Assembly: GCA_038228295.1 (NCBI GenBank)
Contig: JBBRPH010000027.1
Coordinates: 375 to 64,374, forward strand
Direction: 5' to 3'
Length of the DNA stretch: 64,000 nt
DNA from: Chloroflexia bacterium
Lineage (GTDB): Bacteria; Chloroflexota; Chloroflexia; QHBQ01; JAICKM01
Shown: one piece after another, positions 1-1,823 of the stretch
Numbering within the stretch: position 1 is the stretch's first letter
Layout of the letters: each line of letters opens with the position of its first letter
Made by a program: the position numbers and the translations under genes
Notes under the pieces: model-generated
What the model was told of the DNA's origin: nothing
What the model saw: only the letters and a program-made list of their open reading frames with translations
The model's database searches: none

Positions 1-519
1 CGGACCATCATACAGTGTCGCCGTTGGGACGGCATCATAGCTCAGGGGCCGCCCGTCCGCTTCCCACGCACCCAGGCCGCCGTCTAGCACGCCCACATCG
101 CGGTAGCCTGCCGCCAGCAGCATCTGCGCCAAACTGGCGCTTTGTTCATCGTGCGGTCAGCCACAGTAGACGATTAGTGGGCGATCATGGGGCAAGGTGT
201 CCAGCCGGCCGGCGACGGCCGCCGGCGGGAACAGTTGCGCGCCGGGGATACGACGCACTGCATAATCCTCCGGCAGCCGCACATCCAGCAGCACCACTCG
301 GTTGGCCGCCAGATCCGCCGCAAGTGCGGCCGGCGACACCCGTCGGAATGCCTCCGGCGCTGCCGTCACCGAGACGAGCGGCGCGGGCGTGAGCAGCGGC
401 GGCAAGGTCGGCGGCACACGCAGGGACGGTACGCCTCCTGCCCCCGGTTCCGGCGCCGTCGCGCAGCCCGCCGTCAGTAACAGCACACCGATCCCCAACA
501 CCCACAGCATTCGCTTCAT
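1..519 (-). CDS. Rhodanese-domain lipoprotein, probable selenoprotein (UGA at 159-157 read as Sec); runs off window start
   Basis: Lipobox LTAG-C; rhodanese core VLLDVR..IPGA..LIVYCG. The same frame continues past TGA without another stop to position 1: PHDEQSASLAQMLLAAGYRDVGVLDGGLGAWEADGRP (rhodanese C-terminal motif). Confidence 0.75.
126..140 (-). promoter_or_regulatory. Candidate bacterial SECIS hairpin
   Basis: GCGCCA-GTT-TGGCGC perfect 6-bp stem starting 16 nt after the in-frame UGA; the apical loop begins with G. Confidence 0.55.
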
Positions 520-698
520 GGCCCATTATACCAGATGCCCCCCACCCGGCCCAACGCGCCTACGCCTCAGGCAGCCCTGCCCCGGCGCCGCCAATACCGC
601 CCACAGCATACGCTCCCGCCTAAGCGCTAAACAGGCGTGGCTCAGGAGCGTGTGTTCCTGAGCCACTTGCCTACAGCCTACCGCTGCCCATGTATCGG

Positions 699-1823
699 CT
701 ACTGGTCTGACCGCTTGCGGAAGAGCTTGAGCGGCGCACCGGCGCTCGGCCCCGACGCAGCAGCGCGGGCATAGGCGAGGATGCTGATCTGTGCGGCCAG
801 GTTTTTGGCGACCGTGCGGAAGGCTTCGGCCGGCGCCGACTGCGGCTGGTCCACGGTGATCGGCTTACCACTGTCGCTGCCCAAGCGCACCGCCAGCGTC
901 AGCGGCAGTTCGCCCAGGAACGGCACGTCGAGATCGTGCGCCGCTGCGGCCGCGCCGCCGTGCCCGAAAATCTGTGTTTCGTGTTGGCAATTGGGGCAGA
1001 TGAACGTCGTCATGTTCTCCACGATGCCCAACACCGGCACGTTCAGCTTCTGGAACATCGCCAGCGCACGCTTGGCATCCATCAAGGCCACATCCTGCGG
1101 CGTGCTGACGATCACTGCGCCGGTGAGCGGCAGCGATTGGGCCACCGTCAGTTGCACATCACCGGTGCCTGGAGGCATATCCATCACCAAGTAGTCCAAC
1201 TGGCCCCACTCGACGTCATACATGAATTGGGTTAGCAGTTTGGTCAACATCGGCCCACGCCAAATCACCGGTGAATTATCGTCGGGCAGGAAAAAAGCGA
1301 TGGAGATCATATCCACGTTATAGGTGCGGATCGGCTCGATTTTACCGCTGGGACTGCTTTCCGGCTTGCCGACGGCGCCCATCATTAAGGGCACATTAGG
1401 GCCGTAGATGTCGGCATCCAGCAGGCCCACGCGCGCGCCGGTCTGGGCCAGGGCCAGGGCCAGGTTCACCGCCACGGTGGACTTGCCCACGCCGCCTTTG
1501 CCGCTGCCGACGGCGATGATGTTGCGCACGCCGGGAATGCCCTCACGCTGCGGCACATAGGAGCCTTGCACCCGCGAAGTCATCGTCGCGGTCGCCGAGG
1601 TTACACCGGGGATGGCGCCCACCGCCGCCTCGGCCTGTTGCTTCATCTGCTCTTTGACCGGGCAGGCCGGCGTGGTTAAGACGACAGTGAAATTTACTAC
1701 ACCGTCACTAATCTTTACATTTTCAACAAACTTCAAAGCCACAATATCTTTATGCAGATCGGGATCACGCACCGTCCGCAAAGCATCAAGCACTTGTTCT
1801 TCCGTTACCGCTGTTAGCGTCAT
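699..1823 (-). CDS. mrp: Mrp/NBP35 (ApbC) Fe-S cluster carrier ATPase with N-terminal DUF59-like domain
   Basis: TTPACP, GSGKGGVGKST, DADIYGPNVP, WRGPM, DMPPGTGD and CPNC motifs. Confidence 0.93.
   Translation of the reverse strand: MTLTAVTEEQVLDALRTVRDPDLHKDIVALKFVENVKISDGVVNFTVVLTTPACPVKEQMKQQAEAAVGAIPGVTSATATMTSRVQGSYVPQREGIPGVRNIIAVGSGKGGVGKSTVAVNLALALAQTGARVGLLDADIYGPNVPLMMGAVGKPESSPSGKIEPIRTYNVDMISIAFFLPDDNSPVIWRGPMLTKLLTQFMYDVEWGQLDYLVMDMPPGTGDVQLTVAQSLPLTGAVIVSTPQDVALMDAKRALAMFQKLNVPVLGIVENMTTFICPNCQHETQIFGHGGAAAAAHDLDVPFLGELPLTLAVRLGSDSGKPITVDQPQSAPAEAFRTVAKNLAAQISILAYARAAASGPSAGAPLKLFRKRSDQ

Follow-up and report, generated by a model that had tools for sequence, protein, structure and literature searches.

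The rhodanese gene and the selenocysteine pathway of the genome

The window analyzed here is a stretch of 64,000 nucleotides from the draft genome of a Chloroflexia bacterium (contig JBBRPH010000027.1, positions 375 to 64,374; contig C27 below). At the beginning of the window, a gene on the minus strand very probably encodes a single-domain rhodanese selenoprotein of 173 residues, in which an in-frame TGA codon would be read as selenocysteine (Sec, U). The genome consists of 177 contigs with a completeness of ~90% and a G+C content of 63%. The features of the gene are listed below in window coordinates.

519..1, minus strand: coding sequence of the predicted selenoprotein, 173 codons, with the ATG at 519-517 and the TAG outside the window
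157..159, minus strand: in-frame TGA, codon 121, in the motif V-Y-C119-G-U121-P, presumably read as Sec
163..165, minus strand: codon of Cys119, invariant, aligning with the canonical catalytic Cys of rhodaneses
126..140, minus strand: putative Sec hairpin (selenocysteine insertion sequence, SECIS) GCGCCA-GUU-UGGCGC, separated from the UGA by a spacer of 16 nt
463..519, minus strand: predicted lipoprotein signal peptide MKRMLWVLGIGVLLLTAG followed by C19, lipobox L-T-A-G-C
337..462, minus strand: Pro/Ala-rich linker, residues 20-61, of low model confidence
58..336, minus strand: rhodanese domain, residues 62-154 (Pfam PF00581, AlphaFold2, Foldseek)
525..533, minus strand: promoter-like element TGGTATAAT of the extended -10 type, ending 5 nt before the ATG

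With translation table 11, the open reading frame comprises 120 codons (window 519..157, minus strand) and ends with ...DRPLIVYCG-TGA. Past the TGA, the same frame stays open for 52 further codons to window base 1 and reads PHDEQSASLAQMLLAAGYRDVGVLDGGLGAWEADGRPLSYDAVPTATLYDGP. The true stop codon TAG was found at C27:372-374, directly after ...TLYDGP, and 374 contig bases remain on that side. Since this TAG lies directly beyond the window edge, the gene is complete with 173 codons.

The Pfam Rhodanese domain (PF00581) was identified in residues 62-154 with an E-value of 4.8e-16 and 59.5 bits (gathering score 22.2), and the match spans the TGA at codon 121. The public gene calls for the window gene and its two closest orthologues end at the TGA (117-119 aa). 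A protein homology search of public collections returned only such truncated calls and one unrelated two-domain rhodanese. A preliminary description of the locus had claimed that the frame continues past YCG-TGA for 52 codons to the window edge, that the continuation completes the rhodanese domain and that standard pipelines truncate the gene, all of which could be confirmed.

The same description had named selA, selB, selC and selD as genes to look for, and selA, selB, selD and the tRNA-Sec were all found in the genome with scores above the curated cut-offs. One tRNA-SeC (tca) was detected by aragorn and reached 62.7 bits with the Rfam model RF01852 (gathering score 47). The scores were 513 bits for selA, 361 bits for selD and 306 bits for selB, the latter rising to 331 bits when an adjacent stretch of the same frame is included. 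The presence of selA does not separate Sec from Cys forms, since it was found in 59 of 61 genomes of the same class, where genomes with only Cys forms had been expected to lack it. The selD gene (contig C112:6562-7512, locus L001) appears to encode a selenoprotein itself, since its frame contains a TGA in the canonical motif C-A-G-U-A-G-K (...TCAG-U-AGKMG...), with hairpins downstream of this TGA.

Conservation of the TGA codon and the downstream hairpin

Homologues were collected by a six-frame search of 60 related genomes and the own genome, which gave dozens of matches holding exactly one TGA in the related genomes. In total, 60 loci were fetched and 61 sequences of the CxC/CxU type (Cys-x-Cys or Cys-x-Sec) were obtained. 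The column of codon 121 is occupied by TGA in 55 and by Cys in 6 of these 61 sequences. The 55 TGA sequences, recovered by protein homology, represent an unbiased set; 52 of them are homologues from related genomes, and the remaining ones are the window gene and two paralogs of the same genome.

For the two paralogs, tblastn revealed the TGA in the same column, with the motifs AYCQ*PAENESA (contig C64) and AYCQ*PAEQESA (contig C37). Both paralog genes (C64:1058-1945 and C37:25743-26552, plus strand) carry a transmembrane segment as anchor and the same SECIS hairpin. The number of Sec-rhodanese genes is three in this genome and 3-5 or more in relatives of the order.

The motifs of the Cys forms are YCECPNDEESA, YCDCPHDEESS (twice) and YCNCTAEQVS (three times). 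As predicted in the preliminary description, a Cys stands at the Sec column in a YCxCP motif (YCECPNDEESA, YCDCPHDEESS). In an alignment of 16 full-length proteins, the invariant positions are Y118, C119, 121 (U or C) and S127.

Two further orthologues were identified on independent Logan metagenome contigs from different samples, being 63-68% identical over the called products of 119 residues. These calls end with ...AYCG and ...AYCA, and the contigs show a TGA followed by the conserved continuation. In one of them (L216), the frame ends at ...LYDGP as in the window gene, and the gene that follows is also the same.

The perfect hairpin with a G-starting loop described 16 nt downstream of the TGA was verified at window 140..126 and is conserved in the Sec forms only. 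It consists of a perfect stem of 6 bp and the loop GUU, with a free energy of -10.2 kcal/mol. The hairpin of the family was determined to be GCGCC-NGUNN-GGCGC, located 16 nt after the UGA, with an invariant G26 in the loop. This distance was found in 53 of the 55 Sec forms (in 13 of the first 13, the hairpin starts at the same position); the other two are shifted by one register and have the stem GAGCAA/UUGCUC and a different peptide (ESKRVA). None of the six Cys forms has a complete hairpin, the nearest being L024 with 3 of 5 core pairs. Among 53 distinct Sec sequences, the five core pairs occur in 48-51. In the orthologue of genome G002, a compensatory change was observed (GUGCCA/UGGCAC). 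The same helix was predicted independently by RNAalifold, and the observed covariation score was reached by none of 500 column shuffles.

The codon usage over the stem is restricted as well. Among the Sec forms, Ser127 is always encoded by AGY (55 of 55) and never by TCN, Ala128 by GCC (52 of 52) and Ala131 by GCG in 52 of 55 sequences, the three exceptions pairing with an altered partner. Codon 129 is NGU in 52 of 55 Sec forms, which puts G-U in the loop. The Cys forms have GCC for Ala131 and different codons at positions 128-129. Judged from these codons, the hairpin constrains the synonymous codon choice in the Sec forms.

The bacterial SECIS element has been described as a stem-loop just 3′ of the UGA whose apical loop is small and includes a G (PMC1088965), and the hairpin of the window gene likewise lies inside the coding region and has a G-containing apical loop. 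In an Rfam scan, no SECIS family matched the hairpin, and the sole match was a chance microRNA (E-value 9).

The L024 gene (G020:C73) has the Cys form YCECPNDEESASVAY and clusters with the Sec form L028 in the tree. With its partly kept stem, it looks like a recent switch from Sec to Cys, or the reverse, with a decaying SECIS.

Overall, the idea of a hidden selenoprotein put forward in the preliminary description is supported by the Sec machinery, the conserved TGA, the Cys homologues and the hairpin specific for Sec forms. By comparison, the UGA at codon 121 is very probably decoded as Sec by SelB and tRNA-Sec, directed by the hairpin.

Three other explanations were considered for the TGA. 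It could be a true terminator, resulting in only a 120-residue product and leaving the 52 downstream codons as an untranslated remnant, or termination could dominate unless selenium is abundant. When selenium is limiting, Sec codons are expected to cause some termination. Table-11 gene callers yield just this short product (117 aa call), and TGA is a normal stop in this genome, where a crude count of long open frames gave 611 ending in TGA, 642 in TAG and 602 in TAA. However, the truncated product lacks the α-helix and the β-strand which complete the rhodanese fold, and orthologues of 49-68% identity have kept the protein sequence of the downstream frame up to the same YDGP stop. In addition, the split would have to be kept in 55 homologues and in at least 119 loci of several phyla (see below). 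This explanation is regarded as very unlikely.

Near-cognate decoding or suppression could also insert another residue than Sec at the UGA, such as Cys, Trp or Gly, or TGA could be reassigned genome-wide. An inserted Cys would work, as this is the aligned residue in the Cys forms, and three odd tRNA-like calls with unassigned anticodons were given by aragorn. On the other hand, the complete Sec pathway with a canonical tRNA-Sec is present, and the conserved hairpin, which lies at SECIS distance and has G/U in its loop, is what SelB decoding requires and plays no part in suppression. A reassignment throughout the genome was rejected, since TGA ends about as many long open reading frames as TAG or TAA, and the G002 orthologue itself terminates with a TGA; the G+C content is also unlike that of the lineages known to reassign TGA. 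Recoding to another residue is therefore considered highly improbable.

The least probable explanation is an error of sequencing or assembly, or else a pseudogene in which a Cys codon (TGC/TGT) recently underwent a nonsense mutation. It is hardly credible even for a draft assembly and a codon one base away from Cys, since the same TGA column is shared by 55 sequences including the two paralogs and the relatives with the G002 orthologue, and also by the two independent metagenome orthologues, the latter orthologues and the paralogs each with an identical hairpin, and since the downstream frame has no further damage and its synonymous codons are constrained to keep the stem.

Several results weigh against the selenoprotein interpretation or limit it. 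A stretch of 48 nt alone folds no better than its shuffles (z = -0.18), and its minimum free energy structure is a different fold. The absolute covariation of the stem is small and sparse since the stem is nearly invariant, and this invariance could partly stem from the conserved S-A-x-x-A peptide. For the hairpin, the evidence from the single sequence is weak and the comparative evidence strong; as far as can be judged from sequence, it is meaningful only through its conservation across the homologues. The best NCBIfam match of the window protein, NF041203 (rhodanese_LYCAU), reached 69.5 bits and falls below the cut-off of 115, which places the protein outside the equivalog as curated. Finally, the gene context is not kept in the G002 orthologue, which lies between a helix-turn-helix regulator and purH.

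Protein fold, gene context and proposed chemistry

The AlphaFold2 model of the protein has a mean pLDDT (predicted local distance difference test) of 83. The values per 10-residue block were 91-98 over residues 61-160 and 58-76 over residues 1-60. A Foldseek search against the PDB identified rhodanese domains (3tp9, 6mxv, YgaP, Alr3790, BH2092 and GlpE). The fold is the same as in GlpE, PspE and YgaP (1gmx, 2jtq, 5hbl), 3tp9 and Alr3790 (3ilm, 3hix), with E-values of 8e-10 to 1e-6 and root-mean-square deviations of 1.1-3.1 Å over ~105 residues. PspE is periplasmic and YgaP membrane-bound.

In the model, Cys119 follows the strand 115-118 and is located at the strand-loop junction, like the catalytic Cys of classical rhodaneses. 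Sequence alignments with PDB entries place Cys119 on the catalytic Cys of 6mxv and other rhodaneses, followed by an insertion of two residues (YCG--GFRSA in 6mxv, YCGUPHDEQSA in the window protein). Due to this insertion, Sec121 would lie inside an enlarged loop.

The classical active-site loop is a basic six-residue loop, C-x-x-G-x-R/S, with one Cys and no Sec. In contrast, the loop of the window protein (C-G-U-P-H-D-E-Q-S) is acidic, contains no Arg or Lys, is two residues longer and has the Sec at position +2. It therefore differs from the classical definition, and the acidic, lengthened loop indicates a protein with the rhodanese fold which need not be a thiosulfate sulfurtransferase. Among the PDB matches, none of the solved structures has a CxC or CxU loop.

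The N-terminus shows the features of a lipoprotein signal peptide, with K2/R3, a hydrophobic core and the sequence L-T-A-G-C19. Lipoboxes follow the rule [LVI..][AST..][GAS]-C (PROSITE PS51257). The lipoboxes of the orthologues are LTGC, LAAC and LAGC, and the genome encodes lgt (172.6 bits) and lspA (100.1 bits), both above their cut-offs. The lipobox together with Lgt and LspA corresponds to the pattern of bacterial lipoproteins and fits the membrane-anchored, extracytoplasmic location proposed at the outset. The window protein is likely to be a membrane-tethered extracytoplasmic lipoprotein.

The upstream neighbour (window 699-1823, minus strand) encodes an Mrp/ApbC (NUBPL-type) iron-sulfur cluster carrier ATPase with an N-terminal FeS_assembly_P domain. 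The spacer of 179 nt between this gene and the rhodanese gene holds the promoter-like element. The -10 element was found in the same place in three orthologues (L020, L216 and L217), 5-6 nt before the ATG, with the sequence TGCTATAAT in L020. A Shine-Dalgarno sequence before the ATG was found neither for the window gene nor for these three, and a sigma-70 consensus scan requiring a -35 element called no promoter. The position of the -10 element just before the ATG and the lack of a Shine-Dalgarno sequence in all four orthologues suggest that the mRNA is leaderless.

The downstream gene (C27:1-361, minus strand) lies outside the window and begins 11 nt after the rhodanese stop (TAGGAGGAAGCCGGCATG); its ribosome binding site overlaps the rhodanese stop codon. 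The product has a zinc-ribbon N-terminus followed by Pro-rich '...LRFSREEL...' repeats and is cut by the contig end. The pairing of the rhodanese and the zinc-ribbon gene is kept in the L216 orthologue (L216:740-1012).

A different neighbourhood was observed for the paralogs. For the paralog type AYCQ-U-PAENESA with a transmembrane anchor, 11 of 16 loci of relatives have an adjoining TlpA-like gene in the same orientation:

L201-L203, L205, L206, L208-L213, same strand: paralog loci with an adjoining TlpA-like gene

In the region C37:23220-29329, the paralog on contig C37 is flanked by ccmA/ccmB/ccmC on one side and by two TlpA-like Redoxin genes and a DUF3105 gene on the other; a TlpA-like protein is encoded at C37:26681-27385. 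This arrangement suggests that the TlpA-like gene and the paralog form a conserved gene pair, with the TlpA-like protein as a possible redox partner.

The loop, with its invariant Cys119, its Sec at +2 and its acidic character, and the location outside the cytoplasm speak against a classical thiosulfate:cyanide transferase and rather for a redox-active C-x-U pair, which would handle sulfane sulfur or disulfides through Se-S intermediates. A possible course of events is as follows. After export by means of the type II signal peptide, the protein would receive its lipid on Cys19, and the Pro-rich tether of ~40 residues would keep it at the outer face of the cytoplasmic membrane. Its loop would keep Cys119 and add the Sec two residues later, without the thiosulfate-binding basic residue of classical rhodaneses. 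Sec121 would be the nucleophile attacking an extracellular substrate of the sulfane-sulfur or disulfide type. The Se-S intermediate would then be resolved by Cys119, giving an intramolecular selenenylsulfide, and a membrane-bound, thioredoxin-like protein of the TlpA/ResA type may be the partner that reduces it again.

This Se-S relay chemistry of the window protein is put forward tentatively and is somewhat less probable than its negation. It is opposed by the fact that the TlpA-like neighbour belongs to the paralogs, and the window gene itself adjoins the Mrp/ApbC and zinc-ribbon genes.

A wider proposal, namely that the Chloroflexota CxU rhodaneses with their 3-5 copies per genome form the part that depends on selenium in a so far unrecognised redox relay outside the cytoplasm, is speculative and rather unlikely. 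If it were true, the partners would be the adjoining TlpA-like thioredoxins, here beside the ccmABC cytochrome c maturation genes, and sulfane sulfur would be delivered or removed, or disulfides reduced, on exported proteins. The window lipoprotein would then be a specialised copy, co-transcribed with the zinc-ribbon repeat gene from a leaderless promoter, and might couple this chemistry to a membrane signalling partner. In any case, the TlpA-like neighbour of the one paralog type is a concrete candidate partner.

Family membership and spread of the CxU rhodaneses

Reports of rhodanese-related selenoproteins go back at least to the Sargasso Sea study of 2005 (PMC1088965). The CxU rhodanese selenoprotein was described as 'form 3' in PMC13188914 and as 'COG0607 form 2, CxU' in PMC9312934, and the function of this catalogued family is itself predicted (NF041203; PMC13188914, PMC9312934). 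The window protein combines the two features that define the class in these studies, a rhodanese domain and C119-G-U121. By its sequence, it is a divergent Chloroflexota member of the catalogued, predicted CxU rhodanese selenoprotein class. The class as such is already known, and what is new is a divergent member from Chloroflexota which the curated model and the gene callers miss. Nothing was found for the window gene beyond such a divergent member.

NF041203 is the best NCBIfam match for the window protein and all its relatives. Two tested members from Desulfobacterota pass this model with 168-175 bits, and eight tested copies from Chloroflexota and Acidobacteriota reached 57-85 bits. The window protein shares with 'form 3'/NF041203 the single rhodanese domain, the Y-C-x-U motif, the SECIS directly downstream and, as in most members, an N-terminal signal or anchor. 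It differs by its lipobox and long Pro-rich tether and by the loop, which is VYCGUPHDEQSA compared to LYCAUPNE[YH]TSA in NF041203.

A quick maximum-likelihood tree joins the window protein and the G002 orthologue on a long branch (support 99). This pair stands among other paralog groups of the order and apart from the NF041203 clade, the Desulfobacterota members forming a separate clade.

The spread of the family was analyzed with a DNA pattern composed of the Y-C-x-U codons and part of the hairpin; as part of the hairpin is required, the loci found in this way give no unbiased test of the stem. The pattern matched at least 119 loci, with ~0.3 chance matches estimated from its information content. 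Among the matches listed, metagenome-assembled genomes (MAGs) of Chloroflexota, Acidobacteriota, Desulfobacterota, Nitrospirota, Methylomirabilota and Verrucomicrobiota are represented, and a strongly hydrophobic segment at the N-terminus was seen in 66 of the 76 CxU proteins whose upstream sequence is long enough. A lipobox-like motif is present in 29 of these 76. The frequent hydrophobic N-terminus indicates that export or membrane anchoring is a trait of the family.

For the annotation of genomes, this means that the cut-off of NF041203 together with truncating gene calls hides a widespread and mostly exported selenoprotein class. The CxU rhodaneses would represent a use of selenium outside the cytoplasm, in a loop which keeps the canonical Cys and adds a Sec at +2.

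The closest comparison within the order is given by the Cys-form YCxCP rhodaneses (L024, L027 and L033), which agree with the window protein in their domain, loop length and membrane-anchored architecture. Their identity to it is 29-32%, and they carry a Cys at its Sec column. Unlike in the window gene, the SECIS stem is absent or decayed in these forms.

A further Sec-containing rhodanese is TsoB (NF045694, UxxxxU), a selenoprotein resembling a rhodanese/DsbD fusion, in which a Sec rhodanese domain is likewise tied to a transmembrane thiol-reductant pathway. This coupling parallels the TlpA-like neighbour of the paralog type. The similarity to TsoB is weak (18-31 bits, cut-off 805). TsoB is a fusion protein with two Sec and a different Sec motif, whereas the window protein has a single domain and one Sec.

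Some CxU rhodaneses showed other architectures. In L070, L089, L090 and L118, a large N-terminal region and a membrane helix are fused to the CxU rhodanese. The fusion is near identical (tree end branches of 0.06-0.09) in MAGs of Verrucomicrobiia, Methylomirabilota and Limnocylindria, which points to recent horizontal transfer or binning errors. In L058 and L085, the open reading frame upstream of the rhodanese contains hundreds of hydrophobic residues and looks like a membrane transporter.

The transmembrane-anchored CxU/CxC rhodaneses of L021-L024, L027-L029, L031, L033 and L035 share the N-terminal motif RGPSRPVDPR-x-APG...RRGPDPF, which is located on the cytoplasmic side, ahead of the membrane helix.

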